From assembly GCA_963692945.1 (NCBI GenBank), contig OY843585.1:1-32000 (forward strand): a stretch of DNA of 32,000 nt. The letters run 5' to 3'. Below are positions 3,307 through 30,481 of the stretch, piece after piece. This DNA comes from Bdellovibrionales bacterium. Its GTDB lineage: Bacteria > Bdellovibrionota > Bdellovibrionia > Bdellovibrionales > UBA1609. Position 1 is the stretch's first letter, and each line of letters begins with the position of its first letter. The notes under the pieces were generated by a model that did not search any database, had not been told where the DNA came from, and was given only the letters and a program-made list of their open reading frames with translations. Both the position numbers and the translations under genes were made by a program.

Positions 3307-5931
3307 TTAATCAATACTAAAATCTAAAAAACTAGACTTTAATTCAGCTCCAGATTCTTTCATTTTATTTTTCTCAAGGTTTGTAAGGTTTTTTTGCCAC
3401 CTTTGTATTTGATTCATTGCTTCTATTGGAGTCTTATCAAATAAAGGATATTGAATTAATTCTTTAATAATAGGACTCTCCTTTAATTTATTTTGTGTAT
3501 TTTGTTGAGGCTTTTCAACTCGTTCTGTCTTCTGTTCTTTAGTAAACAAGTCCATTTGATCTATCTTTTGTTTATTCTTCTTAATACCTTCATAAGATTT
3601 TAATAAACCAGAAGCACGGTTAACAACAGAAGCAGGTAACCCAGCTAATTTTGCCACTTGTATCCCATAAGATTTGTTAGCTGGCTCCTTTAATAGAGTG
3701 TATAAAAAATAAATTTGCCCTTCTTTCTCTCTAATAGCCATAGACCCATTATGAATAACAGGATGTTTTTTAGCCAATTGAGTCAATTCATGATAGTGAG
3801 TTGCTGATAAAAGAATAGGTTTCTTTTCTAAAGTTAAAAATTCCAAAATAGATTGAGCAAGACTCATTCCATCAAAAGTAGCTGTCCCACGACCAATTTC
3901 ATCTAATATAACTAAACTTTTTGAATCCGCTTTCTCTAAAATTTCTGCTGTCTCTTGCATTTCAACCATAAATGTAGATAAACCTTGAGATAAGAGATCA
4001 CTTGCACCTATCCGTGTAAACATCTTATGAAACAAAGGTAATATGGCCTTATCTGCTGGAACAAAAGAACCACTTTGAGCCAATAAAACTGTTAAAGCCA
4101 CCTGTCTCATAATAGTGCTTTTTCCAGCCATATTAGGTCCTGTTAAAATCAAGGATTCACTTTCTTTCAAATGTATCGTGTTAGGAATAAACTCTAGAAA
4201 AGATTTTTGTTCTAAGACAGGATGACGACTATTTGTAATTTTTAGTTCTAAACCAAACTTGGGACGAATGTATTTGTTTTCTATAGCCACAAAAGCTAAA
4301 GAACTAAAAACATCCTTTTCACTTAAGTCATAAGCTAGTTTTAATAAATAAGGAAGCTGCTTTAATATTTCTGTTTTTAAATCTTGAAAAATTTGATACT
4401 CCATCTCTACTTGTTTAGAATGAGCAGAAAGTATTTTTTCCTCCAAAACATTTAATTCTTCCATTGTATATCTTTCAACATTTACAAGAGTCTGTTTTCT
4501 TATATAATGAGAAGGAACTTTAGAACTGTAGGTTTTACGAACCTCAATATAATAACCAAAAATATTGTTGTAACGAATCTTTAAAGAAGAAATTCCTGTT
4601 TTCATTTGCTCTTCTTTTTCCATTTTTAATAATAAATGTTGGGTGTTTTTAGATAACTCTATCCATTGATCTAACTGAGGATTTACACCTTTATTGATCA
4701 AACCTCCTTCTTTTAATAAAATGGGAGGAGAAGGCTTAATGGTTTTTTCAATATTGTATTTTATATTTTTTGCAATTTCTAATTCCTTCAAATAAGATTC
4801 ATCATTCATTAACTCATAAATTTGAAGTCCATAGGAAAGCACTTCAGAAATAGCCAAAAGATCGCGACCATTACAAGTGGGCTGAACCACCTTGCCTAGT
4901 TTTCTTTCTCCATCACCAATACAAGACAAAATATTTCTAATATTTTCTAATTTTTCTTTTTGAGATATCCACATGTCAATTTGATCCCAACGTTCCTCTA
5001 TATCTTTTTTGTTGACTAAGGGAGTTTGTAAAATTTTTCTTAAGTATCTAGCACCACCAGGTGTTTTTGTACGATTTATAGATGAGAAAAGAGTGTCTTT
5101 GTGTGACCCTTCATAATTTTTAAAAACCTCCAGGTGATGAAACAAATGAGTAGAATAATACATTTCTTGATTTAATTTTTTATGTTCAAAAGAATGAAGA
5201 ATATTTAAAACAGATTCTCCTTGCATAAACAAAGCATAACGGATAAGTCTCTTCACACTTTCAGGATAGAGATCATATTTCTCTAAAATAGAATTTGAAA
5301 AATCTCTCCCCGTAAGATCTCTAATTTCCTTTTTATCAAAGACTGTTAAATGATAGTTTTGAAAAATAGGAGATTTTAAAAACTTTTCTTTTTGAGAAGA
5401 AGTGACAATCACTTCAGCTGGAGATAAAAGATTAAATAACTTAAAAAAATCTTTTTTATCTTTCACTTGATAGTAATAAGCCGTTCCTGTTGATATATCT
5501 AAGAAACTTATGTGATTCTTATCAATAGCAGCCATATAATTATTTTTTAGTTGATCAATGGTTTCGGGATCATAAACCATACCTGGACTTAAAATTCGTG
5601 TTACAGCTCTTTTTACTAAACCTTTGTTAGAGGCTTCATAAGGTTCAATCTGATCACATATAGCCACATTAAAACCAGCAGCAAGAAGTTTTGAAATAGG
5701 ACTCGCAATACTATGATGAGGCATTCCACACATTTTAGTTTGCACTTTAGACTTTTTATTTCTAACTGTTAAAGCAATATTTAAAATAGGAGCTGCTTTT
5801 TCAGCATCTTTACCGAACATTTCAAAAAAATCTCCCATTCTAAATAACAGAATTTTATCTGGATGTTCTTTTTTAATTTTTAAGTATTGCTCCATTAACG
5901 GAGTTGTCTTTTCCATAAGTTTTTTTAACAT
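3307..5931 (-). CDS. mutS: DNA mismatch repair protein MutS
   Basis: N-terminus TPLMEQYLKIKKEHPDKILLFRMGDFFEMF, Walker A TGPNMAGKSTIMRQ, Walker B LVILDEIGRGTATFDG, length 874 aa. Confidence 0.97.
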   Translation of the reverse strand: MLKKLMEKTTPLMEQYLKIKKEHPDKILLFRMGDFFEMFGKDAEKAAPILNIALTVRNKKSKVQTKMCGMPHHSIASPISKLLAAGFNVAICDQIEPYEASNKGLVKRAVTRILSPGMVYDPETIDQLKNNYMAAIDKNHISFLDISTGTAYYYQVKDKKDFFKLFNLLSPAEVIVTSSQKEKFLKSPIFQNYHLTVFDKKEIRDLTGRDFSNSILEKYDLYPESVKRLIRYALFMQGESVLNILHSFEHKKLNQEMYYSTHLFHHLEVFKNYEGSHKDTLFSSINRTKTPGGARYLRKILQTPLVNKKDIEERWDQIDMWISQKEKLENIRNILSCIGDGERKLGKVVQPTCNGRDLLAISEVLSYGLQIYELMNDESYLKELEIAKNIKYNIEKTIKPSPPILLKEGGLINKGVNPQLDQWIELSKNTQHLLLKMEKEEQMKTGISSLKIRYNNIFGYYIEVRKTYSSKVPSHYIRKQTLVNVERYTMEELNVLEEKILSAHSKQVEMEYQIFQDLKTEILKQLPYLLKLAYDLSEKDVFSSLAFVAIENKYIRPKFGLELKITNSRHPVLEQKSFLEFIPNTIHLKESESLILTGPNMAGKSTIMRQVALTVLLAQSGSFVPADKAILPLFHKMFTRIGASDLLSQGLSTFMVEMQETAEILEKADSKSLVILDEIGRGTATFDGMSLAQSILEFLTLEKKPILLSATHYHELTQLAKKHPVIHNGSMAIREKEGQIYFLYTLLKEPANKSYGIQVAKLAGLPASVVNRASGLLKSYEGIKKNKQKIDQMDLFTKEQKTERVEKPQQNTQNKLKESPIIKELIQYPLFDKTPIEAMNQIQRWQKNLTNLEKNKMKESGAELKSSFLDFSID

Positions 5932-6246
5932 ATCAAAAAATAGGTTTCCTAATCAAAAATAAAGTAAGTCTAGTTCGTTTTTCTGACATTATGCAACGCA
6001 TATTAAAAAATCAAGCCTCTATAAAGCGTTAAATAGCCAAACAGATATCTGTATCTAGTCCATATTATACGCATATAAAAATAAGTTTTAAAAAAGGATT
6101 TTTCTTTAACTTAAAAATCTCTAGAAATTCTTTATGCACCAAAAGGAATGTATAGAAAAAAATTTATCTAAAAAATCAAAACGGCTTTAAACCTGGTTTA
6201 ATTTATTAAGATTTCCTATATATTCTTTATCTAATATTATGATATT

Positions 6247-7512
6247 TTATTTTTGAATTATCTTCTTTAATTCTATTTGTTGCTCTTCTGCTTTTGGTTC
6301 ATCTAGAAGAACCTTCATAAACCCTTTAAACAAATTTCCAAATATTTCAGTGACACCAATGTAATTCACCGAAACATTTCGCTCAGTTTGTTTTAAAATA
6401 CTCTCATGATACACCGTAATGGTATCGTATATATTAATACTAGGAAAAACAGTTTGAATAAGTTTTAAATTGATTTTTTTAGGTATCTCTTTGTTTTTCA
6501 ATATATAATTGAAAACCACCCTTTCAGTAAAAAATGGCTTTAAAACAAATGAGAAAAAACGATCTTCTAAAGAAATCATTGTGAAAAGAGCAATGATTGG
6601 TTTGAATAAACAAAAAATGGGACGTAACTCATCAGATTCTAAAATAAGGTTATGATTCTTATCATAAAGATTAAAAAACATTTCAACTAAATACAAATTC
6701 AATAGCATATATTTGATATGACTTCTTGTTAAAATTCCTTCACCATGGAGTTTGTCATAATCAAAGAGCATGACTGTCAAAGAAGATATAACAGCATCTA
6801 ACTGATCTTCATCTAAAGATTGAAAATTTGAAGATGCATTCCATAGTTTATTTTTAATAACTCGCTCAAAAGATGGTAACAAATGATCCTTCTTTAAAAG
6901 AATAGGTGATGTACCTTGTAAATCGTGGAAAAGATTAAAAAGTTTTTCTGCAGATGTATTAATAGAAATAAGGAAATCAGAAAAATCTTCAAGAAATACA
7001 GTAAAGGTATCAACCTCTTCTCTAGAAACAGCCCCTTTCTTTATCTTAGGACAATAATCTTCAAATTCAATACTCTCCTTACTTTGATATTTTTTCATAG
7101 CATCAATGAGTGAATCTTTAGAACTGCGAATTTGATGGTAATAATTATGACTTGTAATAGCTTCTATAATAGGTGCTGTACTTTCCGTTTTTATAAAAGG
7201 TTCATTAAGTAATTTAAAAATCTCCTCATCTGTAAAATAGTCTTGATTATCTCCAACGACACTCTTTACATATTGATTGATTTTAAAAACAAAACAACTT
7301 AAGATATGTTTCACTCTGCGATTAGATTCTGTATAATCTGTATCGTTCACATAACTTTTTAATTCACTTTTATAGTTTAAGATGTCACAAAAACTATCAC
7401 TACCTTCAATTTTATAAATAAATGGATTGGCCGTTTCCTCTCCAACTTCTAAACCACAATGAGGGAGAAATAATAAACTAGCCAATATAAAAAATAATTT
7501 TTTAAAAAACAT
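6247..7512 (-). CDS. Secreted or lipid-anchored protein of unknown function with an EF-hand-like loop; short paralogue of the 8884-11118 product
   Basis: ATG start and a signal peptide MFFKKLFFILASLLFLPHCG with a Cys in a non-canonical lipobox. It shares these motifs with the larger paralogue: DYFT.EE.FK, VS.EE...F...LE.F..FL and the loop DKNHNLILESDE. The start overlaps the upstream barrel gene by 11 nt. Confidence 0.75.
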   Translation of the reverse strand: MFFKKLFFILASLLFLPHCGLEVGEETANPFIYKIEGSDSFCDILNYKSELKSYVNDTDYTESNRRVKHILSCFVFKINQYVKSVVGDNQDYFTDEEIFKLLNEPFIKTESTAPIIEAITSHNYYHQIRSSKDSLIDAMKKYQSKESIEFEDYCPKIKKGAVSREEVDTFTVFLEDFSDFLISINTSAEKLFNLFHDLQGTSPILLKKDHLLPSFERVIKNKLWNASSNFQSLDEDQLDAVISSLTVMLFDYDKLHGEGILTRSHIKYMLLNLYLVEMFFNLYDKNHNLILESDELRPIFCLFKPIIALFTMISLEDRFFSFVLKPFFTERVVFNYILKNKEIPKKINLKLIQTVFPSINIYDTITVYHESILKQTERNVSVNYIGVTEIFGNLFKGFMKVLLDEPKAEEQQIELKKIIQK

Positions 7513-8884
7513 ACCCTAATCTCCATCCAAAATAATCATTAGCACGAAATTTGTATAAGAAGCTTTTTGTTTCAATACTTTTAGCACCTAGGACATTGAT
7601 TGTCACTGAAGTGTATAATTTGGGAGACATATAATAAGTGGCTTTCATAAATAAAAGTCCTCCTTTATTGTAAGGAGAATATTTATAATTGACATCTAAT
7701 TGTCTCTTTAGACGATTTGATCCTAGATACTCCACATGTAGATCAAAACCTATACCATTTAAGATTTTATACTGATTAAAGAAAAAAGGAGTTTTCTTTA
7801 TATCTTGATAGGCATCTTCTTTATCATTTTTTTTACTAAAAAAAGATTTTAAAAAACTTAGCTGCAAATAATTTTTAGAAGATATATTGTATTTTGTTAA
7901 AAGAGAAAAGTAGGTGAAGTGACCCCTTTCATGAAGGAAATCCCAATCTTCTAAGCCTTCTAACTCTTCTTCACCTTCCTGAACAAAAGTATGTCCCATA
8001 GATAAGACAGCTGAAATATCCTTATGTTTACCCCCCCACTCAGAAGATATAATTGTGTGTTTTACAGGTATAGCTGTAATTTCTTTAGAAATCTGCATAT
8101 CTTTTATTTCTAAAACACGACTTGTATTTGTAACAATAAACAGATCGTTAATGGGTTTATAACCATAACTCCATTTTGTCCAGAAAGTACGTTCTTCATT
8201 TAACCAAGTTTTAAAATTTAAAATATAACTTTGTTGAGAAAAAATATCTAAAAGAAAAGGTATTTTTATAAGGTACTCAATATCTAAAAGACCACGACCT
8301 AAAACATCCACTTTATTAGGAACTCCCAAAAACCATCTAGAATAAGAAAAAATTAAGTTATCTTTCAACTCCACTTTTGCATAACTACTAGGCAAATACA
8401 ATCCACCAACTAACATATCAATAGACCAATTTTTTGACTCTATATTTACAAAAGTACCAATCAGCCCCTTAGAAATAGGGTGTAAAAAATCCCAACGATT
8501 TAGAGGATTCCATAAGCCAAACTCCCAATACTCATCGGAAATACTCCAAGAGTTTATTTTTCGTCCAATAGCAACTCCTATAGATTTTATATCTAAATAT
8601 TTAGTATTAAATACATAGGAATAAGAGAAATACATTTCTGGAGCAGAATAGTAGATCATTTTGCTAGAATCTAAAAAATACTGACCAGCAAAATGACTAT
8701 TAAAATAAATATTTCTCCAGTGACGATCAAAATTATAATTTATTTCTAAAGATTTATAATTACTCAACTGGGCACCACCATAAGATGAAGATGTAAAGTG
8801 ATCCCATTGTAGTTCAATATGACTAGGACTAGTAAAAGCTGAAAAACTCAAACTTAACAAGAAGATTGTTATAAAAGTTTTCAT
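7502..8884 (-). CDS. Predicted outer-membrane beta-barrel protein, family not recognised (module B)
   Basis: Signal peptide MKTFITIFLLSLSFSAFT. Amphipathic Y/F/W-rich strands run throughout and the C-terminus is ...GWRLGYVF with a terminal Phe. It is paralogous to 11108-12487: WSISDEYWEFGLWNPL versus WNESDRYWNLGLWQPR, and YGYKPINDL versus YTYKPKNQL. The junction with the upstream gene is TAATG at 8882-8886. Confidence 0.8.
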   Translation of the reverse strand: MKTFITIFLLSLSFSAFTSPSHIELQWDHFTSSSYGGAQLSNYKSLEINYNFDRHWRNIYFNSHFAGQYFLDSSKMIYYSAPEMYFSYSYVFNTKYLDIKSIGVAIGRKINSWSISDEYWEFGLWNPLNRWDFLHPISKGLIGTFVNIESKNWSIDMLVGGLYLPSSYAKVELKDNLIFSYSRWFLGVPNKVDVLGRGLLDIEYLIKIPFLLDIFSQQSYILNFKTWLNEERTFWTKWSYGYKPINDLFIVTNTSRVLEIKDMQISKEITAIPVKHTIISSEWGGKHKDISAVLSMGHTFVQEGEEELEGLEDWDFLHERGHFTYFSLLTKYNISSKNYLQLSFLKSFFSKKNDKEDAYQDIKKTPFFFNQYKILNGIGFDLHVEYLGSNRLKRQLDVNYKYSPYNKGGLLFMKATYYMSPKLYTSVTINVLGAKSIETKSFLYKFRANDYFGWRLGYVF

Positions 8885-11118
8885 TAGAAGTGATTCCTAT
8901 ACAATGTATAAAATTTTAATGTCGTTGAGTACAGTGACCCTTTAGTAATATGAAATGGCTCGTCCTTATGATTTATATGCCAATCAAAAAATTTAAGAGA
9001 AGAGAAAGTCTGACCTTCTTCTTGAAGAAAAGGAATAGATCCTGTTTTAAAACTATACATAAGAAAAGACCTGGATTGAGAGCTCTCTCTGATATACGGT
9101 ATAGACTGAACGATCTGATCAGAAAACTTTTTAACAACTTGAAAAACCTCCTGACTCTCTAAACGAACATCTCTATTTCTATCGTTAAGATGAAATTGCA
9201 CTTCTAACATTTGTATAATTAGAAACACATCCATTAAGTCAGATGGTTTGGTTAGAGCCGATCTACCCTTCAATAATTTTTTTGTACTTAACTGATATTC
9301 ATTGGAATCATAGTTAGTTAAATAACTTTGCAGCCTTGGAAAAGGTTTCATAATGTCTTTCTCAAAAAGATGATCTCCTACACAGGAGACTTCTAGAACA
9401 TCAGAGCAAGACTGAATCAGTTTATTATAAGCATACTGACTGTTTTCTCTAGCAGACATAATATGTACAATTAAATCTAAAACTTCCTTACTATCTAATG
9501 ATTTATCACTATTAGAAGAGTTTAAAAAATGATCGGCATAATCAAAAAGACCTATAAGCTGTTTTCTTAAAGAAAAATCATAACCTTCTTTTTCAAAAGC
9601 CAATAAAACAGGTAACACCTCATCAACAACACTCTTCCAATCTTTTGAAGAAAGATTATAAACTTTTCCTTCTTTTTTATAAGGAGTTAAAAATAAATCC
9701 GATAGAAAGCGATAATTTAAAAGGCGGTAAGGCAATGCCCGATAAGTTGTAGGAGAAGAAAAGAAAGTATAAAAAAGGATACGAGAATCCCCTTCTACTT
9801 CTCCAAAAGAAGACTCAAGCCAATGATCAAACTTATAAAAATCAGAAACAGGTTTGATTTGATGTTGAAACAAACGTTCGTAACCTACAACATAGTCTGA
9901 AAGCCAGTTTTGAATGGATTCTAACTGAGAAGGTGTCACTTCAAAATCAACTCCTTGATTAGGCAACCATTTTTGTTGATCTCGGTAAAACTGAAAAGTT
10001 CCATCTGGAAAATGATACTCTATAGATAAAAAGTTTCTCTGCCCCACTTTGTAAGAACAATCCTTTGAATGTTTTGTCTTGAACACAAAACAAACTAAAC
10101 TTCTTGTAAATAATGGAATAGGGTTTGCTTTTTTGTTTGTAAAAATACGAAGATTATCAAACTGTTGAACTTGGTCTTTTGATAAAGAAACCATAATGGA
10201 TAACATCTCATCTATATTTTTAATAGGAAATCCTCTTTTTTGTGGAGAAGACTCTACAAAAGATAAAGAAGAAACAAAGTATTCTAAACTCTTTAGAACC
10301 CTAGCTAAAATTTCTGGCTGAGAAAGATTTTGTTCTAAGGCATATCTTTTATAATAAAGAAACATAGATATCATTTTATGAGAAGATTTGAAGAAATAAT
10401 CCCAACTACTCTCTTTTATAAAAGTCTTTGGAAGTAAAAAACCTTTCACCCATAATTTTAAAAATTGAGCATACTTCTTCCAACCAGGAGTGCTCTGATT
10501 GTAGTCCTCTAAATAACTGAATAAATGGTCAAGATCACTCACACGATAGGTGACCCCTTTTTCCTGATAAGACTGACTTAAAAATCTAAATGCTTCTTCC
10601 AGTTTTGATAAAGTAAATTGAAACTCTTTTTCAGAAACCTCACCCCTCTGTTCTGGATGAAGTATTTTATTTATTACTCCTATCCTCTTATGAATAATAT
10701 AATAAAAATCAGCATAAACATTAACAAGTTCATAAATAGTTTTTAACTCTTCATCTCTTAATTGTTGTCGCTCACCACCAACAATAAGATGTTTGATTAA
10801 AAATAGGTTATCTACTAAATCTTGAGAAAGATCTTTTTCCAATTCAAAATGAACATGAAACATTTTGAACATCTCTTTTTTTGTAAAATAATCTCGAGAA
10901 GGATCATGTATGAAAATTTTATTTACAACAATCAATTCTAAAGAATCGTGAACACAACGAAAAAACCTCTCCTGTTTTTCCAACTTAAGCTGTCCTGTTT
11001 TTAAATAAGGGTAGTAACTCTTCATTTCTTTTAAACAGGTTGAATTCTCTATAAGTCCAAAAACAGGAAAAGAAAAACTTATAAGAAAAAATATAGAAAA
11101 TAGGACTTTAAAAAACAT
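8884..11118 (-). CDS. Large secreted protein of unknown function with two EF-hand-like loops; long paralogue of the 6247-7512 product
   Basis: The longest ORF starts at the GTG at 11127. The ATG at 11118 gives MFFKVLFSIFFLISFSFPVFG and reproduces exactly the 11-nt overlap and MFFK start of the paralogous junction at 7512. Loops are SSNSDKSLDSKE and DRNRDVRLESQE. Confidence 0.8.
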   Translation of the reverse strand: MFFKVLFSIFFLISFSFPVFGLIENSTCLKEMKSYYPYLKTGQLKLEKQERFFRCVHDSLELIVVNKIFIHDPSRDYFTKKEMFKMFHVHFELEKDLSQDLVDNLFLIKHLIVGGERQQLRDEELKTIYELVNVYADFYYIIHKRIGVINKILHPEQRGEVSEKEFQFTLSKLEEAFRFLSQSYQEKGVTYRVSDLDHLFSYLEDYNQSTPGWKKYAQFLKLWVKGFLLPKTFIKESSWDYFFKSSHKMISMFLYYKRYALEQNLSQPEILARVLKSLEYFVSSLSFVESSPQKRGFPIKNIDEMLSIMVSLSKDQVQQFDNLRIFTNKKANPIPLFTRSLVCFVFKTKHSKDCSYKVGQRNFLSIEYHFPDGTFQFYRDQQKWLPNQGVDFEVTPSQLESIQNWLSDYVVGYERLFQHQIKPVSDFYKFDHWLESSFGEVEGDSRILFYTFFSSPTTYRALPYRLLNYRFLSDLFLTPYKKEGKVYNLSSKDWKSVVDEVLPVLLAFEKEGYDFSLRKQLIGLFDYADHFLNSSNSDKSLDSKEVLDLIVHIMSARENSQYAYNKLIQSCSDVLEVSCVGDHLFEKDIMKPFPRLQSYLTNYDSNEYQLSTKKLLKGRSALTKPSDLMDVFLIIQMLEVQFHLNDRNRDVRLESQEVFQVVKKFSDQIVQSIPYIRESSQSRSFLMYSFKTGSIPFLQEEGQTFSSLKFFDWHINHKDEPFHITKGSLYSTTLKFYTLYRNHF

Positions 11119-12487
11119 ACTTAACACCTAAAAGTAACCGTGAAAGATCTCTATATTTACTAATTAAAGAAGTTCCATTTTCAATAGTTTCATCTGAAAA
11201 TCTAAACAAAACATCTCCAGAAATATAAACTTGAAAGTTAGGAGTCATATTAAAAAAAGCATCTAAAATAGTAGCATAAATTTGATTATCTAAAGCATAA
11301 TTGAGTCTAAAATTAAATTGCAATCCAGAAAATAAAGCCGCTGTCCAGTATTCCATAGACCAACTCAAGGCATGTTTCCAATCAAAACCTGTCCCAAAGA
11401 TAACTTCTAAATCTTCTGTAACAATATTACTCGATTCCACATCATTCTCACTCTCAAAATTTTTGATATACCCCAAAGTGAAAACAGTTTTTTCTACCTC
11501 TTTTATTTCCTCTTTAAAATACACTAAAAAACTTGTTATTAAACTAGGTTCAAAACTATCTGTAACCCAATCTTTTTTGATCGTTAATTTGTCAGGTCTT
11601 TCATAAAATAAAGAAGCAAATATAGAAAGATTATCATTTAGATCCATTTCTGATTCAATAGTAAATAAGTGATGCCTAACTGTACCGTAATCTAAACCTT
11701 TGACAGTTATTTTTGAGGAATCCGTTTCAGAAAGACTTATACCTCCAGTTTGCACAAAAAATTGCAGCTGATTTTTAGGCTTGTAAGTATAAGACAAAAA
11801 AATCTCTGAGTAAGACAATTTATGATAAACTTGAACGGCCAACATAGGTTGAAGGAAAGACAAGAAATCAAAAGATCGTAATTGATCCACATCCCATTTA
11901 ACATTTTTCAAACTAGCATTAGAAAAATAAGGATTCTCAGAAGTGACAACTCCATCTTTTATCTCTGGATAAATAATCACATCTGGTAAATAAAAATAAG
12001 AAAAATAGAAAGTAAGGGAAGTATTAGGAGAAGGGAAATAATCCAAATACACACCGGGAAGACTTGTTTGTAGAGGACGGAAGGCATCTAATAAATAACG
12101 AGGCTGCCACAGTCCTAAATTCCAATATCTATCTGATTCATTCCAAACAAAATCTCTAAAACCTAAAACAAGATTTAATTGATTTTTAACGACAGGCAAA
12201 ATAACAGAGAGTTCTCCAAAACGATAATAATGTTTTTTTTCAAAAAAAGAATAACGATAGCCAACATCTATATCAATTTTAGAGTTGTGATACTCCCATT
12301 TTCCACCGACAAAACTAGAGTATCTATTCTCAAAAAAGTAAGAAAAATGAAAGTCAAATTCTAAATAATTTTTTTGCTCCGTATCTTTAAAAAGCACCCA
12401 TGGATAAGATATTCCTATCTGTGGAATAAGCAAAAAAGCAATACAAAACCATTTTATAAAAACCTTATTTTTCATCTTTTTGACCAT
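11108..12487 (-). CDS. Predicted outer-membrane beta-barrel protein, family not recognised (module A)
   Basis: The signal peptide is within MVKKMKNKVFIKWFCIAFLLIPQIGIS. The composition is beta-strand rich and the C-terminus is ...LLLGVKYVF. It is a paralogue of 7502-8884. Confidence 0.8.
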   Translation of the reverse strand: MVKKMKNKVFIKWFCIAFLLIPQIGISYPWVLFKDTEQKNYLEFDFHFSYFFENRYSSFVGGKWEYHNSKIDIDVGYRYSFFEKKHYYRFGELSVILPVVKNQLNLVLGFRDFVWNESDRYWNLGLWQPRYLLDAFRPLQTSLPGVYLDYFPSPNTSLTFYFSYFYLPDVIIYPEIKDGVVTSENPYFSNASLKNVKWDVDQLRSFDFLSFLQPMLAVQVYHKLSYSEIFLSYTYKPKNQLQFFVQTGGISLSETDSSKITVKGLDYGTVRHHLFTIESEMDLNDNLSIFASLFYERPDKLTIKKDWVTDSFEPSLITSFLVYFKEEIKEVEKTVFTLGYIKNFESENDVESSNIVTEDLEVIFGTGFDWKHALSWSMEYWTAALFSGLQFNFRLNYALDNQIYATILDAFFNMTPNFQVYISGDVLFRFSDETIENGTSLISKYRDLSRLLLGVKYVF

Positions 12488-17975: not shown

Positions 17976-18349
17976 GCCCAAACCTCAACTTCTACAAGAA
18001 CAGATTTTGGTAAGGCCGATACCTCTACACAAGATCGTGCTGGTTTATGGTTAGAAAAATAAGTTTTATAAACTTTATTAAATGGTTCAAAATTTTTTAA
18101 GTCTGTCAGAAATACAAGAGATTTAACTACATGTTTTAAGGTCATTCCTTCTGAAGATAACACCGATTTAATATTGTCTAGAACTTGTTGGGTTTGAACA
18201 GAAACATCTTCTCCTACCACTTGTGCTGTCTCTGGATGAAGAGGTATTTGTCCAGAACAAACAAGCCAAGGTCCGATGCGAATCGCTTGCGAGTAAGGGC
18301 CAATAGGAATGGGAGCCTTTGAAGTACAAACTGATTTTAAAAATGTCAT
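17963..18349 (-). CDS. ridA: RidA/YjgF/L-PSP family reactive-intermediate deaminase
   Basis: APIPIGPYSQAIRIG at the N-terminus and SCVEVSALPKSVLVEVEVWA at the C-terminus. Length 128 aa. The start overlaps the upstream stop as ATGA. Confidence 0.9.
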   Translation of the reverse strand: MTFLKSVCTSKAPIPIGPYSQAIRIGPWLVCSGQIPLHPETAQVVGEDVSVQTQQVLDNIKSVLSSEGMTLKHVVKSLVFLTDLKNFEPFNKVYKTYFSNHKPARSCVEVSALPKSVLVEVEVWAYRD

Positions 18350-19527
18350 TTTACGTTTTTCTCACGAAAAATATTAAAATTTAATGGACGATAGTAAACG
18401 GTGTATTGATTATCTTGGACGATCGGTGATTTTTTATAATTGTAATATTTAAAGTCTTCACCAATATGAATAGACATTGTTTCAGCATTATAATACCAAC
18501 CCTCATGTGTATCATTTGGTATCTCATAATCATTGTATAGAACTCTTATTGTATCCACTAAAGGAACTTCTTCAATTAAAATCACCGGAACATAAAAAGA
18601 ACGTTCTATATCCTTTGATATAACAGTTAGTTTTTTTCCCCAACTCTCTTTATCACAAACAGAAAAAGCATGACCACTAGTCTGCTTAATAAAGTTATGA
18701 GCATGAGCTGGAAATGGAACAATCGCATGAATATTCTCCGAACAGTTATCTACATGATTCTTTGTTCTTTCTAGAGGTAAGACTCCATAAGCTTTGATTT
18801 GATCATCTCCTTTATGTTTAATAATTTCATTGAATTTACCTAATCCAACCCTCTCCCCTTCTTTAGTAATAGATACATTTGAAGAACCCTCAGAAAGTGA
18901 ATAATGAGCTTCAGTCATCTCTCCTAAAGCATCAGATACAAAAATGATAACTAGAAAATTTTTTTCACTAAAAAAATCTCTGGCAATATCTTTATCATTT
19001 TGTTTCATTAAAAAATCTAAAGCAGAGAAGTACCATTCGTATCCTGCATCATTATAACCGCTTACGCTATCTACACTCTTAGATAAAAGACAAGATATAC
19101 TTTCAAAGTTTACATCATTAGAATCTTGAGTTTTATATTTAAAGTAGTTTCCTACAGTCGTTTTATGAACAAATTTCTTAAAATCCTTGCAACTTTCTAA
19201 TAATTCATCAGTCGCTATGAAAAGAGGATGTCCATAAGAGGTGTTAAATGTCTTATAAGGAGACATTGTAGTTATAGCAAAATTATAATTGTAATAAGAA
19301 TGTTCTTTCATAATTGGAAGAAAGTACTGAAAATTCTTCACTATTGTTTTACGAAAATCACCTGTACTACCAGAAGTATCTAATACAAATAAAAAACTTA
19401 TATCTGAAAATCCAGCAACAGATGTAGAAATAATTTTTTTTAAAGGTTTCGCAATAGAGATGAGCTTAGGAGATGGCCCACAACCCACTAAAAACAATAC
19501 GAAAACTATACTAATAATTCTTTTCAT
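18346..19527 (-). CDS. von Willebrand factor A (vWA) domain lipoprotein; candidate CglB-like adhesin
   Basis: Canonical lipobox FLVGC/GPS. MIDAS motif FLFVLDTSGSTGDF (D.SGS), with a later beta-strand plus Asp at LVIIFVSDALGE. AAGGA lies 7 nt upstream of the ATG. Confidence 0.8.
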   Translation of the reverse strand: MKRIISIVFVLFLVGCGPSPKLISIAKPLKKIISTSVAGFSDISFLFVLDTSGSTGDFRKTIVKNFQYFLPIMKEHSYYNYNFAITTMSPYKTFNTSYGHPLFIATDELLESCKDFKKFVHKTTVGNYFKYKTQDSNDVNFESISCLLSKSVDSVSGYNDAGYEWYFSALDFLMKQNDKDIARDFFSEKNFLVIIFVSDALGEMTEAHYSLSEGSSNVSITKEGERVGLGKFNEIIKHKGDDQIKAYGVLPLERTKNHVDNCSENIHAIVPFPAHAHNFIKQTSGHAFSVCDKESWGKKLTVISKDIERSFYVPVILIEEVPLVDTIRVLYNDYEIPNDTHEGWYYNAETMSIHIGEDFKYYNYKKSPIVQDNQYTVYYRPLNFNIFREKNVK

Positions 19528-19545
19528 TTTTCATCCTTTTAAACA

Positions 19546-21090
19546 TCATAAAGTATAAGATTTTTTGGGACAAGCTTTTGAAAAAGAAGTCTGATAATCA
19601 CCAATTTCATCGCCCCAGATTTCTCTCGCATCAAAAGGAAAAGTAACCTCGTAACCAACCCCTTCTTTCAAATTAGAAATAACAGATTTCCAATTTGACG
19701 TAGGGAAAAGATTTTTTCGATTCCTATGATAACCATGAATGCGATAAAGAGCTTCCATTTCAATAAAATACATCTGACTTAAAGTTTCAGCAATTTGAGA
19801 AACTTCTTTTTGAAAAAATACTGAAATTTTTCTATCAATTTGCTTATCCAAATTTTTTACAAAATCATTGTATTGCTTTTCTAGAGGCTTGAATCCTTCC
19901 ACAGAAGACATCTCATTATTTGTAAATTTTTTTAGTAAAATGAGATTTTTTATGGAACGATTACTTTTTAACAAACTAGATAAATGTTTAAAAGACAATA
20001 ATTTATTATCTATAGAGTAAGACGCTAAAAGATCTGTTTTAACATCTTCAAAAAAATTCTTTTTTAGTGAATTTTTTAGATAACTCTGTCTTTTAGAAAA
20101 ATGCTCTTTAAAATAAGATAAAGAAGAATTGAGATTAGGGTAATCACAATTTTTTAATTGAGAAAGAGAAAGAATAAGAAACATACTTGGTGTCAACACA
20201 TCTTGCAAAGGAGGATAAGTAAAAGAAGAAACAGAGGAAAAAGACTGAGCATAATCACCTTTATTATAGTGAATCCAAGATTTTTCTTCCTGAGCTAATA
20301 ACCATTTAAAAGATAACTTTTTCACCTTATTGTAATAATAAACAGCAGACTCATACTCGCCTATCTCATTAAGTAATCTAGCAATAGTTAAATAAATTGT
20401 ATTTTTATGATTTAAATCTTCCGTTTGTTTAAGTAACCAAGCTAAAATCTTAGTGGCAGAATTCATATCGTTTTTTTTAATCAAATGACGAACTAGAGAC
20501 CATTCCAAATAATAATCATTATTTTTATCATGAACTGGAAGTTTTAAAAAATATTCTATCTGTTTTCTATCTTTAACAAGAGAGAACTCTTTTTTAGATC
20601 CTACTTTCAAAGCAATATCTTCATTAAAAAAATCAGTCCAATCTTTTGACCAAGTCCCTATAAAATAATTCCAAACATCTTGGTTAGAATTAAAATTTGT
20701 CCTCCATAAATTATAAATAATGGGATTAACTTTTTTAGGCTCTACTTCATTAAGGAGGTGATTTAAACCCAAAACTTGAAATCCATTTTTAAACATTAAA
20801 AAAGCATAGAGAGCCTTACCTGTAGAGGTTTTTGCAAAAGAAGTTTTTTGAAAAGAAGACGACCACAATTTTAAAGACTGACTATAATCTTTTTTTTCAA
20901 GAGCAATGTATAAGTTTTTATAGTTTTTTTCTAAATAGGACGGTAATAAAGAAACTACATCTTTTTGTAGATGCTTATCTAAAGTGAATTCAGAATCTTT
21001 AGTTTCCTTTTTTAATATATCCAATACACTTGCTTGTGCTTCACCCATAAAAAAGTTAGAAAATAAAAGAGAAATACAAAAAAGAATCAA
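19546..21090 (-). CDS. Secreted TPR-like repeat protein (GltC/GltE-like by context)
   Basis: TTG start overlapping the upstream TGA as TTGA, with AGGAG 7 nt upstream. Signal peptide MILFCISLLFSNFFMGEAQA/SV. TPR-like helices include IARLLNEIGEYESAVYYYNKVKKL and WIHYNKGDYAQSF. Confidence 0.75.
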   Translation of the reverse strand: MILFCISLLFSNFFMGEAQASVLDILKKETKDSEFTLDKHLQKDVVSLLPSYLEKNYKNLYIALEKKDYSQSLKLWSSSFQKTSFAKTSTGKALYAFLMFKNGFQVLGLNHLLNEVEPKKVNPIIYNLWRTNFNSNQDVWNYFIGTWSKDWTDFFNEDIALKVGSKKEFSLVKDRKQIEYFLKLPVHDKNNDYYLEWSLVRHLIKKNDMNSATKILAWLLKQTEDLNHKNTIYLTIARLLNEIGEYESAVYYYNKVKKLSFKWLLAQEEKSWIHYNKGDYAQSFSSVSSFTYPPLQDVLTPSMFLILSLSQLKNCDYPNLNSSLSYFKEHFSKRQSYLKNSLKKNFFEDVKTDLLASYSIDNKLLSFKHLSSLLKSNRSIKNLILLKKFTNNEMSSVEGFKPLEKQYNDFVKNLDKQIDRKISVFFQKEVSQIAETLSQMYFIEMEALYRIHGYHRNRKNLFPTSNWKSVISNLKEGVGYEVTFPFDAREIWGDEIGDYQTSFSKACPKKSYTL

Positions 21091-21863
21091 AATAAAACTC
21101 CTATTGAGACGTGACCTTTAGATAAGTAATTATTTATAACATCAAGTTTTTTGCCTACCTCATACGAATAATAAGAACCAGATAATCCTATTCTAGCACT
21201 CACTCGTTGACTCAACCAAAAAACCAAACCTCCTCCAACAGAAGCTGTCGGAATATTTTTTTCATCCAATCTAAGTAACTTTAAAACACCACCAGAAAAA
21301 AACAAATAAACATCAAAGTGTATGATTTTATTTAATACCGCTATTTTCCCATAAAAAGGAGACCAATCAAAACCTAAAGAATACTCTTGTTGTTGAGCAT
21401 ACTCTAACTCTAAAGGGTTTTGACCATAATTCAAAGTATCCTCTCCTTCTTTATTGATCTTGTTCAAAAAATAAGAGTATTTTAAATGGACACTCCAATA
21501 ATTACTTAAATAAAACCTATAAGTTACATCTAAAGAAGCCGTGTTCAAATAAGTAACACCTTTCATTACAGGGGAACCAACTAAGCTCAACTCAGATAAA
21601 AACCTCTTAGGTAATAACCGTTTTTGAACAACATTTAAACTAGACCTATACTCAAATTGAGAACTCATAATTTGTAAAGATTCAGAATTTTCTCCTAAAG
21701 ATTTAAATTCCTTTTCTTCTTTACTTTTTTGTTTTGTATAGTCTTGCTTTTTACTAAAACCATGAAAAGAAGTGAGGATGATTCCAAAAACAATACATTG
21801 TTTTAAAATAAAAAGTAAAAATATTTTTTGCTTTAATTTTATCATAACAAATACCCTTCTCAT
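21087..21863 (-). CDS. Small outer-membrane beta-barrel protein, GltA/GltB-like (myxobacterial-type OMP barrel)
   Basis: It has a signal peptide. VVQKRLLPKRFLSELSL...WSPFYGKIAVLNKIIHFDVYLFFSGG fits the ..PiYGK......hFD.Y..G.G pattern I recall for the OMP_myx_plus-type barrels. The C-terminus is HVSIGVLF. The start could instead be the ATG at 21845. Confidence 0.72.
   Translation of the reverse strand: MRRVFVMIKLKQKIFLLFILKQCIVFGIILTSFHGFSKKQDYTKQKSKEEKEFKSLGENSESLQIMSSQFEYRSSLNVVQKRLLPKRFLSELSLVGSPVMKGVTYLNTASLDVTYRFYLSNYWSVHLKYSYFLNKINKEGEDTLNYGQNPLELEYAQQQEYSLGFDWSPFYGKIAVLNKIIHFDVYLFFSGGVLKLLRLDEKNIPTASVGGGLVFWLSQRVSARIGLSGSYYSYEVGKKLDVINNYLSKGHVSIGVLF
21098..21102 (-). promoter_or_regulatory. 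Shine-Dalgarno site AGGAG supporting the TTG start at 21090
   Basis: The plus strand reads ctcct. A 7-nt spacer separates it from the TTG. Confidence 0.5.
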
Positions 21864-21871
21864 TTCCTCAT

Positions 21872-24800
21872 TTAGTGTAGTATAGCACCTGGCCGTGTTT
21901 TTCTAAAAGAATCTATATCCGATACATCCATTTCATCTGTAGTATGTATAAAAAAGACATCCTCTCTATTCGTTCTTAATGTAGAAACAATCACTCCATG
22001 TTCCTCTTTTTTAAATTCACATTTTTTAGAAATAGTACCATTTTCTCCATCCAATTGCGTAAAATTTATTTTCTCTTCACAATCACAAGGCCGCTTTACT
22101 CCATTAGAATCTGTACAAGTCAGATCAATAATGAAAGAATTTTTTTGGTTAAGATCCTCTATCTCTTCCGGAGGATTCTCATAATTATAAAACACTGTGC
22201 ATATTTTAACTTCTGATGATGCAGAATTCAAACAGTTCATAGATGGGGTTAAATTTAAAAAGAAATGACGACCACCTAAAGATATATCATATTTGCTTTC
22301 CATTTCCTTATACTGTATTTCTTGCGTTTTTTTATCTTTAAAAATTAAATAGTCTACCATAGAAAATGCACTGGTTTTTCTAAAAAGGTCATTCCTAACA
22401 TGAACCCTATTTTTATCAAATCCATATTTATAAAAAACATAGACAGGTTTACTAGTTTCAGAATTGAAACCCATTTTTACATTAAAAGTACACTCTTTTT
22501 CTAAGACCACTTTTTCAATAACACTCTTTGTTTCAAGTTCATGAACTGGCTCACAAGGACAGGATATTGATTCAAAAATATCTCCATAAACTTCTTCATT
22601 AGAAATATTTGTTTTTATACAATTAAAACCATTAGAACGGGTAATACTATAAGGTTCTAATTCAATATCAATAATATCCTTAAATTGTGTTATCTCTGTT
22701 TTTTCCGTGATATGAGTTAAATCTCTCTCTAATGGAAGCATTGAAAACAACCTAAAAGCATTGGTAGGGAATACATATTTGATTTTTACATTGTGTGATA
22801 AGTTAAAAAGGGTTTTATTAACTTTTTTTAGAGATTGATTACCTACCTCTTGCGTAGTATCTGCTGAAGCTGGTTCTACCCCTTGTGGTGTAGCTGGAGC
22901 TGGTTCTACCCCTTGTGGTGTAGCTGGAGCTGGTTCTACCCCTTGTGGTGTAGCTGAAGCTGGTTCTACCCCTTGTGGTGTAGCTGGAGCTGGTTCTACC
23001 CCTTGTGGTGTAGCTGGAGCTGGTTCTACCCCTTGTGGAATTAAACCCACCAAATGCCAAAATAAACCTACCTCTTGCGTAGTATCTGCTGAAGCTGGTT
23101 CTACCCCTTGTGGTGTAGCTGAAGCTGGTTCTACCTCTTGTGGTGTAGCTGAAGCGAGTTCAATAACTTCTATTTCCTGAGTGATTTCCATATCTTTTGA
23201 ATCTTTTTTGGACTGATTTTTGAAAAAAGATTGTATTCTAGGGAATGCATGAAGAACAAAAGGAATCTCTCTACCATTTTGAATACGCCCCTCTAATATC
23301 GTTGGTTCAAAAGAAACTAGCAGAGAATAAAAATTATTAAAAATACCATCCGTAATACCTTTCCGTAAATAGGTTTCATTATTTTTTACACCTAAAAATT
23401 TCTCATTTTTTACTTCATATTTAAAATTCCAAATGAAATCGTTATCATATGTTCTGCTAACCAAATCAAGGGATATAGGTGGAAACACATCTCCTCTTTG
23501 TGATGACAGTAAAGAAGATCCTTTCCGCGTTTGATTTACATCTCTCACATGAATCTCAAATGTATCACTAGAAATAAGATCCGAACTAAAAAAAATGAGA
23601 TGAATACCTGTATCAAGAGATTGAGGAGAAACACCTGAAACTAATGATTTTAAATATTTTGGCATTAAACGAAATTTCTTTTTCAACTGACTGTTTTCTA
23701 TAGGATATAAAACTGTATCATCTCCATTTGGTGCATAATACAAATCATACTCTTTCTCTCTAATGAAAACATCCCCATAAAGAACCTGAACATAACAATT
23801 ATCTCCCTCATCAAACTTATTTCTACTAAAATCACCATCCCAACAACGACCCTCTCTTCCATTGAAACCTATGTTTTTATATATAGATGTTGTTTTTCTA
23901 TCAAAAATAATCTTTTGCATGTCACCAGTAGCATGTTTATAAATAAGCTCATCTGGAAATTCATAATAAGTTTCATAAATGTCTGTATCTATACTTATAT
24001 CTTTATCCCCCATACCCTCTAATTCAACATAACAAATCGTCTTTCCATTTTCTGTTTCAATGAAACTATTAGAAGGACAATCTTTTTCTTCTTTTTTCTC
24101 ATAAATAGGTTTTTGTAGACGAAGATAAATAGATCTTTCAATTGGTTTGAAATCACTTTTTTGTTTGTATATAAGTTTTGAATCATATACGAATTTTTTC
24201 TTAAATTCGTCAATATTTTTTATAGGAGGACCAAATTTATAAACACCATCTTCAGCATCCGAAAAATAGTCATAAATTTCTCTATTTAATTTTAAATTGA
24301 TTTTTCCATCTTTAGGGATTTCATAAAAATTTCCATCCTCCATTTTTTCATAATCAAGAGTATTATATGTATATTTGACAATTTCAGGAATCTCATAAAC
24401 TTTTTCAACTTCTAAAAATAATTTTTTAGAAATAACAAAAGCAGGTTTTTTTAGATTGCTAAGATCTCTTAATTCAATAAAAAAAGGTATCTTTATTTTC
24501 CGAGTCTCTTGATATCCTACAAAAAATCTATCCGGCTTCCAAGTTATTACAAGTTCTCTTCTATCCTTATAGTAAACCCATTTAAAATCTTTATATAATT
24601 TGACTGTTCTCTCCGAAAATTTGACATCTATATCAAATGGAAAATCTTTATACAATGGTTTGATTTTAATAACATGTCCTGAAGTCTCTCCTTCTCTAAA
24701 TGGCAAAGTCAAATCTACCTTATTCTTAAAAGTCACCCCTACTGAATTAGAAGATAAAAAATTATCTTTAAAAACATTTTGATTATGAGGACCTGTATTA

Positions 24801-24910
24801 TAAATACCCTTTCTCATATTTTCTGAAATACCTTTTAAAGGGTCTTGACTGCAAGATATAAATACAAAGAAAATAAAAACTAAAAATACTTGTTTTGATA
24901 AATTGAACAC
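21872..24910 (-). CDS. Large Cys-rich lipoprotein with a central Pro-rich decapeptide repeat; no family recognised
   Basis: GTG start with AAGGAGG 6 nt upstream. Lipobox-like VFISC/SQD. There are 14 further Cys residues in pairs or clusters (ISCPCEP, RPCDCEE). The central array reads ATPQGVEPAP/S. Confidence 0.85.
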   Translation of the reverse strand: MFNLSKQVFLVFIFFVFISCSQDPLKGISENMRKGIYNTGPHNQNVFKDNFLSSNSVGVTFKNKVDLTLPFREGETSGHVIKIKPLYKDFPFDIDVKFSERTVKLYKDFKWVYYKDRRELVITWKPDRFFVGYQETRKIKIPFFIELRDLSNLKKPAFVISKKLFLEVEKVYEIPEIVKYTYNTLDYEKMEDGNFYEIPKDGKINLKLNREIYDYFSDAEDGVYKFGPPIKNIDEFKKKFVYDSKLIYKQKSDFKPIERSIYLRLQKPIYEKKEEKDCPSNSFIETENGKTICYVELEGMGDKDISIDTDIYETYYEFPDELIYKHATGDMQKIIFDRKTTSIYKNIGFNGREGRCWDGDFSRNKFDEGDNCYVQVLYGDVFIREKEYDLYYAPNGDDTVLYPIENSQLKKKFRLMPKYLKSLVSGVSPQSLDTGIHLIFFSSDLISSDTFEIHVRDVNQTRKGSSLLSSQRGDVFPPISLDLVSRTYDNDFIWNFKYEVKNEKFLGVKNNETYLRKGITDGIFNNFYSLLVSFEPTILEGRIQNGREIPFVLHAFPRIQSFFKNQSKKDSKDMEITQEIEVIELASATPQEVEPASATPQGVEPASADTTQEVGLFWHLVGLIPQGVEPAPATPQGVEPAPATPQGVEPASATPQGVEPAPATPQGVEPAPATPQGVEPASADTTQEVGNQSLKKVNKTLFNLSHNVKIKYVFPTNAFRLFSMLPLERDLTHITEKTEITQFKDIIDIELEPYSITRSNGFNCIKTNISNEEVYGDIFESISCPCEPVHELETKSVIEKVVLEKECTFNVKMGFNSETSKPVYVFYKYGFDKNRVHVRNDLFRKTSAFSMVDYLIFKDKKTQEIQYKEMESKYDISLGGRHFFLNLTPSMNCLNSASSEVKICTVFYNYENPPEEIEDLNQKNSFIIDLTCTDSNGVKRPCDCEEKINFTQLDGENGTISKKCEFKKEEHGVIVSTLRTNREDVFFIHTTDEMDVSDIDSFRKTRPGAILH
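22841..23155 (-). repeat. Near-perfect 30-nt in-frame tandem repeat in two blocks, with a duplicated 56-nt flank
   Basis: Block 1 has 30-nt units starting at 22869, 22899, 22929, 22959 and 22989, plus a partial unit at 23019-23038. They are identical except for one G/A (Pro/Ser) position. Block 2 has units at 23094 and 23124. The segment 22841-22896 is identical to 23066-23121 apart from that G/A site. The blocks are separated by a unique 27 nt (23039-23065) encoding LFWHLVGLI. Confidence 0.95.
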
Positions 24911-24916
24911 CTTTTT

Positions 24917-24923
24917 CCTCCTT
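24917..24923 (-). promoter_or_regulatory. Shine-Dalgarno site AAGGAGG supporting the GTG start at 24910
   Basis: The plus strand reads cctcctt. A 6-nt spacer separates it from the GTG. It overlaps the stop codon of the upstream gene. Confidence 0.6.
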
Positions 24924-26106: not shown

Positions 26107-26375
26107 TCAAAAATTCTATCTCTTACACTATGCTTTATAGAAAAAACTTCACTTTCAACTATACTTTCACCTTCTATTTTTAAATCCTTTGATTCTTCTG
26201 AGAAACGTTTTTTACCTTGAATCAAAAGAGGACGAAAAGAATAAGATGTTTTTGAAATTGAGGATTTAACTGACTGTTTTGAGCTTACAACATCCCCCTC
26301 TTTTTTTGCAAAAACAAAATGAGGAAGAAATAAAAAATAAACAAGATATAAAAGAAATAATTTTTTTGCACTCAT
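26091..26375 (-). CDS. Small secreted protein, unknown function (positional analogue of GltF at best)
   Basis: Signal peptide MSAKKLFLLYLVYFLFLPHFVFA/KK. Length 94 aa. The start is coupled to the upstream stop as TAATG (26373-26377). No motif recognised. Confidence 0.5.
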   Translation of the reverse strand: MSAKKLFLLYLVYFLFLPHFVFAKKEGDVVSSKQSVKSSISKTSYSFRPLLIQGKKRFSEESKDLKIEGESIVESEVFSIKHSVRDRIFEWESL

Positions 26376-29464: not shown

Positions 29465-29465
29465 T

Positions 29466-29960: not shown

Positions 29961-29989
29961 AATATTACCTTCTTTAAACTTACAACTCT

Positions 29990-30460: not shown

Positions 30461-30465
30461 TTTAT

Positions 30466-30471
30466 CTCCTT
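30466..30471 (-). promoter_or_regulatory. Shine-Dalgarno site AAGGAG supporting the GTG start at 30460
   Basis: The plus strand reads ctcctt. A 5-nt spacer separates it from the GTG. Confidence 0.6.
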
Positions 30472-30481
30472 ATGTTACTCT

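Follow-up and report, generated by a model that had tools for sequence, protein, structure and literature searches.

A duplicated gene pair for a modelled outer-membrane beta-barrel and an EF-hand partner protein in Bdellovibrionota

Why does a Bdellovibrionales bacterium keep two copies of an unnamed gene pair side by side, and what may the two proteins of each pair do together? The locus lies in the first 32,000 nucleotides (nt) of contig OY843585.1 (GenBank assembly GCA_963692945.1). This whole stretch is called the window hereafter, and its positions serve as coordinates; its base composition is AT-rich, with about 30% G+C. In the studied interval (6247-12487), four overlapping open reading frames (ORFs) on the minus strand follow one another in the order barrel, partner, barrel, partner, just as the original prediction, made by a model reading the DNA, had described. 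It was found that these genes represent two paralogous copies of a strictly paired and translationally coupled unit of Bdellovibrionota, consisting of a modelled porin-like barrel and a modular partner with a predicted Ca2+-binding motif. The two products may form a complex in the outer membrane.

Gene pairing, distribution and age

How closely are the four genes linked? Barrel A (12487-11108; 459 amino acid residues (aa), a signal peptide and the C-terminus KYVF) is followed by partner A (11127-8884; 747 aa if read from a GTG codon at 11127), barrel B (8884-7502; 460 aa, a signal peptide and the C-terminus GYVF), and partner B (7512-6247; 421 aa). At each of the two barrel/partner junctions (11108..11118 and 7502..7512) the ORFs overlap by 11 nt (TATGTTTTTTAAA), so that the Y-V-F-stop end of the barrel shares nucleotides with the M-F-F-K start of the partner. 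The sequence tATGTTTTTTAAa, which is that of the barrel A/partner A overlap, is common to both junctions. The stop codon of partner A overlaps with the start codon of barrel B in the form of TAATG. The four genes are tightly and translationally coupled. For partner A, an ATG codon at 11118, three codons after the GTG, gives a likelier product of 744 aa. This ATG is preferred because it yields M-F-F-K, the N-terminus of the orthologues and of partner B, and because it is the start of the recorded gene call (P0167); the listed GTG is probably a wrong start. A low-complexity ORF of 101 aa lies antisense within barrel A (11301-11606, plus strand) and is almost certainly spurious. Scans of the window for promoters and terminators gave counts equal to those of shuffled controls in this AT-rich DNA.

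Is the pairing common in other genomes? A pattern-based scan that took one genome from each species gave 29 loci; divergent members may have been missed by such a scan, and B. bacteriovorus was not among the matches. The loci are labelled Bdellovibrio, Pseudobdellovibrionaceae, Bdellovibrionaceae, Bdellovibrionales or Bdellovibrionota, except for those of one Bacillota and one Proteobacteria metagenome-assembled genome (MAG). All 24 loci with enough downstream DNA have a barrel gene (433-520 aa) and then an overlapping ORF for a homologous partner of 1,006-1,116 aa, and every partner homologue whose contig was looked up adjoins a barrel. In the one such junction that was read, that of Bdellovibrio sp. 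HCB274 (L017), the sequence tATGTTTTCTAAa joins Y-V-F-stop to M-F-S-K in the same layout as in the window. Thus, the suspected pairing of a barrel with a partner is real. The two contigs with discordant labels, L023 ("Bacillota bacterium") and L022 ("Proteobacteria bacterium"), carry typical Bdellovibrio-type pairs and are probably mis-binned. The Bacillota label is suspect because the partner of L023 has almost the same N-terminus as the partner of L038, a Bdellovibrio sp. MAG. Among the genomes sampled, the recognisable pair is confined to the predatory phylum Bdellovibrionota.

The genes around the pair vary between genomes. In the window, the cluster is flanked by divergently transcribed ribonucleotide reductase genes on one side and by mutS on the other, while elsewhere the flanks include FtsH and SecA, enolase and DivIC, an alpha/beta hydrolase, an HD-domain protein or an M14 peptidase. 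Since the flanks vary, the conserved unit is the pair itself. The neighbours, being housekeeping genes and variable, gave no functional clue.

The duplicated form was found in at least nine other contigs with the same barrel/partner/barrel/partner order (L001-L004, L008/L009, L010, L039 and L040; L041 is cut by a contig end). The barrel B proteins of these relatives are 38-62% identical to that of the window. Several of the four-gene loci lie on genome-sized contigs of 1.1-2.2 Mb in a low-GC clade with small genomes, and two lie in different genomic neighbourhoods. Is the duplication recent? The barrels of the window are paralogues, as had been claimed, with 24% identity over 378 residues (BLASTP, E=1e-11). 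In a neighbour-joining tree, barrel A and barrel B form separate clades, apart from the clade of single-copy Bdellovibrio-type barrels, and the only repeat left between the modules at the DNA level is the 31-nt junction. A recent DNA duplication is ruled out by this short repeat and by the separate, old clades of barrels A and B. The tandem duplication is instead old and specific to the lineage. The single-copy form is that of Bdellovibrio and Pseudobdellovibrionaceae, in which the partner is a predicted lipoprotein of about 1,000-1,100 aa. These points refine the original prediction in three respects: the duplication is ancient, a single pair occurs across the sampled Bdellovibrionota, and the partner is ancestrally a predicted lipoprotein, as detailed below.

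On a 1.15-Mb contig (L008), a 238-aa ankyrin-repeat protein is encoded just upstream of the four-gene cluster (5701-6417 of that locus). The window clade may be host-associated, as hinted by this ankyrin-repeat protein together with the small genomes and the G+C content.

Barrel fold and conserved loops

What kind of protein is the barrel? The original prediction took the 460-aa protein for a beta-barrel, and an AlphaFold2 model of barrel B built from an alignment of 14 sequences agrees with it. The model has about 18 long strands which begin right after the signal peptide (mean predicted local distance difference test score (pLDDT) of 72.8, predicted template-modelling score (pTM) of 0.70). 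On one side, the strands are joined by turns of 2-7 residues, and on the other by loops of up to 56 residues. Because the termini are taken as periplasmic, the long loops would be extracellular or lumen-facing. The model has neither a plug, a TonB box, a POTRA domain nor any other periplasmic domain. A signal peptide, a closed barrel of 18 strands, and a C-terminal aromatic residue are all present, and the terminal YVF is near-invariant in the family; these are the features of an outer-membrane beta-barrel.

Foldseek comparison of barrel B with the PDB gave a probability of 1.0 for porins, OprD-type channels, and AlgE only. OmpC, OmpF, and MOMP were matched at E of about 1e-8, with template-modelling (TM) scores of 0.33-0.39 for OmpF/OmpC, while the best superpositions were with 18-stranded AlgE (TM 0.45-0.49) and OccK/BenF-like channels (TM 0.39-0.42), at 8-11% identity. 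The family is not recognised by Pfam, NCBIfam or PDB sequence search, as had been predicted. No Pfam or NCBIfam model matched the window barrels, including those for porins, DUF560, POTRA, Plug, and TonB-dependent receptors. A Pfam scan of 53 barrel relatives gave no family above noise, and searches of PDB sequences found nothing with single proteins and no chain at E<=1 with the profile. The library scans covered the four window proteins, the 53 barrel relatives, 27 partner relatives, and Bdellovibrio representatives; apart from EF-hand matches below threshold, they produced noise, such as a weak match of the signal peptide to PorU_N and single-member matches to DUF6029 and DUF6588. In a profile search of 1.84 billion cluster representatives, by contrast, 941 barrel relatives were found at E<=1e-3 and 575 at E<=1e-30.

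The barrel differs from the porins which it resembles in fold. Classical 16-stranded porins (Porin_1/Porin_4, OmpF/OmpC) have two strands fewer than the model, and their Pfam models matched neither the window barrels nor the 53 members. PopA (Bd0427), the major outer-membrane protein of Bdellovibrio, is likewise a divergent porin-like protein of the same phylum; it has 353 residues and 16 strands with a helical plug like that of FadL, and it assembles into pentamers which enclose a lipid chamber (PMC12228718). However, the top 50 Foldseek matches of barrel B do not include PopA, the barrel model has no N-terminal plug, and PopA has no lipoprotein partner. Membership of the PopA superfamily was ruled out by the lack of a PDB profile match at E<=1, the lack of a plug, and the different strand count.

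Which part of the barrel is conserved? In ordinary porins, the outer loops are the most variable part. Across the 53 barrels, the conservation score was 0.38 for the predicted outer loops, with 0.55 for loop L3, 0.49 for L9, and 0.42 for L4, and only 0.18 for the periplasmic turns. Loops contain 24 of the 45 best-conserved positions, and turns contain none. This pattern is the opposite of that of ordinary porins and points to loops which, in terms of the model, would either be folded inward, into the lumen, or bind a conserved ligand. Conservation within the family peaks in L3 (8456..8566 in barrel B, residues 107-143), with the motif GRK..WS..D.YW.GLW.P...P...GL.G.; its equivalent in barrel A is at 12053..12163 (residues 109-145). 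The motifs listed for the two barrels at the outset, W.(I/E)SD.YW..GLW.P, Y.YKP.N.L, and the terminal YVF, were all found. Barrel B retains all the loop motifs of the family (GRK..WS..D.YW.GLW.P, SRW, YKP.N, and FRANDY). Barrel A retains the L3 motif and Y-K-P-x-N, while in its clade S-R-W of L4 is replaced by N-P-[YF]-F and F-R-A-N-D of L9 by Y-[KR]-D-L-S-R.

The partner family

How are the two partners related? They had been called distant paralogues with a length difference of about 330 aa. The measured difference is 326 aa, and the relationship, weak in a pairwise BLASTP (E=0.01), is evident in a profile comparison (hhalign, 80% probability, E=1.4e-5). Every quoted motif is present, including DYFT..E.FK and L.D.N....LES.E, and a hydrophobic N-terminal signal sequence is visible in all four proteins of the locus. 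I built partner profiles from the orthologues and deduced the module structure from sliced alignments. The two window partner profiles matched the profile of the Bdellovibrio-type partner with probabilities of 98.2% (E=4e-14) and 96.8% (E=2e-10). The Bdellovibrio-type partner (about 1,000-1,100 aa) contains an N-module twice (hhalign 99.8%) and then a C-module. Partner A has a single N-module and the C-module, and partner B, the shortest form of the family, joins a shortened N-module to only that part of the C-module which bears the EF-hand. The orthologues of partner B range from 387 to 1,504 aa through loss or concatenation of modules, and the barrels beside them from only 437 to 486 aa. For example, partner B has 607 aa in L039 and 387 aa in L010. 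In L040 (8706-12322, running past the locus), it reaches 1,504 aa, the whole unit being repeated in tandem at least three times (hhalign 99.9%, 99.4%, and 97.9%), and a canonical EF-hand loop is present in copy 1 and copy 2.

The signal peptide of the Bdellovibrio-type partner ends in a lipobox. The pattern [LVI][ASTVI][GAS]C closing the signal peptide was matched by 23 of the 25 Bdellovibrio-type partners, and nearly all 25 continue with the peptide C-[DS]-x-x-[IL]-[GN]-E-x-P-P. Partner B keeps the invariant Cys and the peptide C-G-L-[EKR]-[IVL]-G-E (in a general form, C-x3-[IV]-G-E); in the window, these are Cys19 and CGLEVGEE (7435..7458, minus strand), the counterpart of the Bdellovibrio-type peptide. 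Judging from these N-termini, the partner is ancestrally a lipoprotein, and partner B is probably still one. On the other hand, partner A has an ordinary signal peptide with no lipobox, no post-Cys peptide, and no conserved Cys at the end of the signal; its first invariant Cys is C31, past a PA(L/F)(A)G-type end.

A single canonical EF-hand loop, D-x-[DNS]-x-[DNSG]-x-x-h-x-x-x-E, occurs in 23 of the 25 Bdellovibrio-type partners, and without exception in partner A and partner B proteins, at a distance of 98-138 residues from the C-terminus. The loops of the window are DRNRDVRLESQE in partner A (9148..9183, minus strand, residues 649-660 of the 747-aa form) and DKNHNLILESDE in partner B (6628..6663, minus strand, residues 284-295). 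The C-terminal "loop" L.D.N....LES.E of the original prediction thus exists, and its nature can now be stated: it is the canonical EF-hand loop. The partner profile matched only EF-hand proteins in the PDB, calbindin at E=1e-3. In Pfam, 13 of 27 partner members matched EF-hand models, below the gathering threshold, with the best E values from 7e-5 to 7e-4; beyond this, neither these 27 relatives nor the window partners matched a Pfam or NCBIfam family above noise, which bears out the claim of an unrecognised family for the partner as well. The partner is considered to carry a predicted Ca2+-binding EF-hand motif. The canonical 12-residue loop with flanking helices is shared with calbindin, KChIP, and ALG-2, and EF-hand proteins are the sole PDB sequence matches of the partner. 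In contrast to them, the partner has only one clearly canonical loop in its whole length of 400-1,100 aa, its other helix-loop-helix units lack Ca2+ ligands, and its Pfam scores stay below the gathering thresholds.

A model of partner A from 12 sequences (pLDDT 79.9, pTM 0.79) consists almost wholly of helices, arranged in repeated helix-loop-short-strand-helix units, and includes a small beta insertion. The 12-residue EF-hand loop lies between helices, with ligand positions 1, 3, 5, and 12. Foldseek found no PDB match for partner A at E<0.1. A likeness to alpha-solenoids such as CRM1 and cohesin regulators was considered and rejected, as TM scores of <=0.16 are not meaningful.

Possible roles of the pair

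How may the two proteins work together? The original prediction had suggested a pair for export, surface display or uptake, and the role may be one of these. I favour, with a probability of about 45%, a 1:1 complex in the outer membrane, with the partner sitting on or projecting from the outer face as the lid or the receptor of a specific channel. This proposal is based on the conservation pattern of the barrel loops, the co-variation of barrel and partner, and the length variation of the partner. The two proteins would be synthesised at a constant ratio to each other, and their complex would be stable. Loops L4 and L9 of the barrel would bind the lipidated N-terminal peptide of the partner, and L3 together with L4 and L9 may be the conserved long loops that grip this N-terminal tether. 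The helical body of the partner, stabilised by Ca2+, would rest on the outer face of the barrel, capping it, or extend away from it. As a whole, the assembly might serve as a surface receptor or as a specific channel with a lid, whose lining would be the Trp-rich L3, in a mode similar to SusC/SusD but without TonB coupling. As for the co-variation, the clade which has lost the lipobox and tether of the partner (pair A) is the clade with replaced L4 and L9 motifs in the barrel. The partner varies about four-fold in length while the length of the barrel is constant, which fits projection into unconstrained space.

Several points weigh against this proposal. The co-variation in pair A is a single evolutionary event, and the assignment of loops and turns hangs on a medium-confidence model in which L3 and L4 have a pLDDT of only 54-68. 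No genes for a substrate, transport or energy coupling are linked to the pair. The lipobox of the window partner B, L-P-H-C, is non-canonical at positions -2 and -1, and its orthologues have L-S-S-C, C-S-C, T-H-C, T-Y-C or S-H-C in this region. About half of the Bdellovibrio-type partners have Asp at position +2, a residue which in E. coli means retention in the inner membrane. Lastly, a helical protein of 400-1,100 aa cannot go through the lumen of an 18-stranded barrel once it is folded. Therefore, surface display would need some further translocation route.

Do known pairs of a barrel and a lipoprotein resemble the module? The SusC/SusD importers of Bacteroidota (including RagA/RagB) are similar in having adjacent genes with the barrel first, an all-helical lipoprotein, and copies which were duplicated and diversified within genomes, and the proposed geometry, with the partner capping the outer face, is also alike. 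However, the window barrel has no TonB box, no plug, and not the 22-stranded TonB-dependent barrel; the original prediction had noted the lack of a TonB box and a plug. The partner has no SusD-like match in Pfam or in structure, consists of EF-hand-like helical units instead of TPRs, is up to twice as long, and belongs to another phylum. In LptD/LptE, MlaA-OmpF/C, and RcsF-OmpA/C/F, a lipoprotein is physically tied to a barrel, and in the case of RcsF a short N-terminal lipoprotein tether can thread the barrel lumen. These systems, however, show no sequence or fold match to the pair, their partners have about 130-250 aa, and their genes are for the most part neither adjacent nor overlapping. 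LptD, with its OstA jellyroll and 26 strands, does not fit in size and strand count either, and LptD/LptE gave no match in Pfam or NCBIfam.

The complex might be extended to a more specific picture, in which a TonB-independent barrel displays a long, modular, Ca2+-switched helical surface arm by means of its outer loops and a threaded lipopeptide tether. The pair would then be a new class of outer-membrane machine that only the predatory Bdellovibrionota have. The arm would serve prey contact or the uptake of prey material, with anchored and un-anchored (possibly releasable) versions in the window lineage. In this full form, the picture is doubtful.

May the partner face the periplasm instead? 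With its anchor in either the inner membrane or the inner leaflet of the outer membrane, the lipoprotein would lie beneath the barrel. It could be a helical scaffold, a plug or a regulator for the export of a polymer or lipid, as in AlgK/AlgE, LptE/LptD or MlaA/OmpF, or else a tether spanning the envelope. This possibility, still on the unlikely side, is in line with the Asp residues at +2 and with the superpositions on the alginate exporter AlgE, and partner A, which lacks an anchor, could simply be soluble in the periplasm. In bacteria, most lipoproteins of the outer membrane are oriented towards the periplasm, and AlgK and MlaA are helical ones that work with barrels. AlgE and the OprD/OccK channels share with the window barrel the 18 strands and a monomer-like fold, and AlgK, a helical outer-membrane lipoprotein, is encoded beside AlgE. 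Yet the identity is 8-9%, there is no Alginate_exp or OprD match in Pfam and no PDB sequence match, and the genes stand in the opposite order. The partner carries an EF-hand, matches neither TPR nor Sel1, and has no structural match to AlgK, LptE or MlaA. The variable flanks of the pair contain no linked gene for a polysaccharide synthase or for Lpt or Mla components. The periplasmic turns, being short and the least conserved part of the barrel, would offer little docking surface, and the four-fold length range of partners in close relatives fits poorly with a fixed periplasmic geometry.

A distinctly less probable idea is that the barrel is a dedicated exporter, of the Slam (type XI) or two-partner kind, and the partner its cargo: a surface lipoprotein in the case of B or a released protein in the case of A, such as an adhesin or a prey-contact factor. 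The adjacency of exporter and cargo genes is typical of Slam and TpsB systems (PMC8406197), and the pair shows the same adjacency. Each partner paralogue retains its own barrel, as paralogous Slam-cargo pairs do, and even the un-anchored partner A still comes with a barrel gene. A modular, length-variable partner resembles many surface proteins, and there are other secreted proteins which fold outside the cell in a Ca2+-dependent manner. Against this stands the barrel itself, which has about 18 strands and not the 14 of Slam, no DUF560, ShlB or Bac_surface_Ag match, and no N-terminal TPR domain, POTRA or other periplasmic domain. The almost entirely helical partner has no TPS domain and no C-terminal beta-barrel domain, the handle typical of Slam substrates. 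Moreover, the coupling of the genes implies synthesis at about 1:1, a ratio more in keeping with a stoichiometric complex than with a catalytic exporter.

If the proteins did not interact at all, the barrels would be ordinary diffusion porins and the partners unrelated envelope proteins which share an operon. The generic porins matched by Foldseek suit this view, which nevertheless seems very improbable in light of the adjacency kept by all 24 loci, the 11-nt overlap conserved at the junctions that were read, the joint duplication of both genes with both pairs retained in at least nine genomes, and the joint change of the barrel loops and the partner N-terminus. That the region is a mobile element, as the name "transposase" for WP_413584594.1 and WP_413574948.1 in NCBI/UniRef would have it, is refuted by its domains and modelled structure. 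Neither Pfam nor NCBIfam detects a transposase domain, and the protein begins with a signal peptide, models as a barrel, and ends in YVF. In addition, one locus was obtained from each of the five complete Bdellovibrio genomes, synteny is conserved in the window's clade, and no inverted repeats flank the region. These two barrel homologues are those of Bdellovibrio sp. HCB274 and HCB290 (L017 and L029, both at 6623-8062), and their name looks like a mis-annotation of a secreted beta-barrel.

Taken together, the module would work most like SusC/SusD, AlgE/AlgK or Slam with its surface lipoproteins. It shows none of the testable defining features of these families, and can be classified only as an outer-membrane beta-barrel with an EF-hand partner. 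Neither a match to a known system nor a model other than a barrel was found, and among the contigs looked up there was no partner without a barrel; the original prediction has held in these respects. The architecture of a dedicated barrel with a cognate lipoprotein is familiar. What is new is that both families are unnamed and that the modelled fold of the partner has no solved relative. The partner homologues are publicly named "hypothetical protein", and no description of either family was found in the literature.

The window contains another cluster on the minus strand (18346-31153). It starts with ExbB (30482-31153) and two ExbD genes (29990-30460 and 29466-29960), followed by six ORFs on the same strand for proteins of 1029 aa (weak TPR), 394 aa, 1012 aa (lipobox-like FISC), 258 aa, 514 aa (weak TPR_21), and 393 aa; the last has a lipobox, LVGC, and a vWA-like motif, DTSGS. 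None of the six matched a family above threshold. The cluster may encode an uncharacterised envelope machine powered by ExbBD. The other large uncharacterised ORFs of the window, including those of this cluster, showed no relation to the barrel or partner families.

What does the pair mean for the biology of these bacteria? Bdellovibrio and its relatives are studied as "living antibiotics", and little of the predator surface has been characterised; the structure of PopA was solved only in 2025 (PMC12228718). The pair adds a sizeable unnamed barrel family, which comprises 941 clusters at 50% identity and is accompanied by a large predicted lipoprotein, and a misleading "transposase" name is corrected. 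Cultured carriers exist in Bdellovibrio sp. HCB274, HCB290, ZAP7, and KM01, and L3, L4, and L9 of the barrel, as well as the C-x3-IGE tether and the EF-hand of the partner, are mutable targets. The retention of the pair, and even its duplication, on genome-sized contigs of 1.1-2.2 Mb suggests a core role in the envelope.

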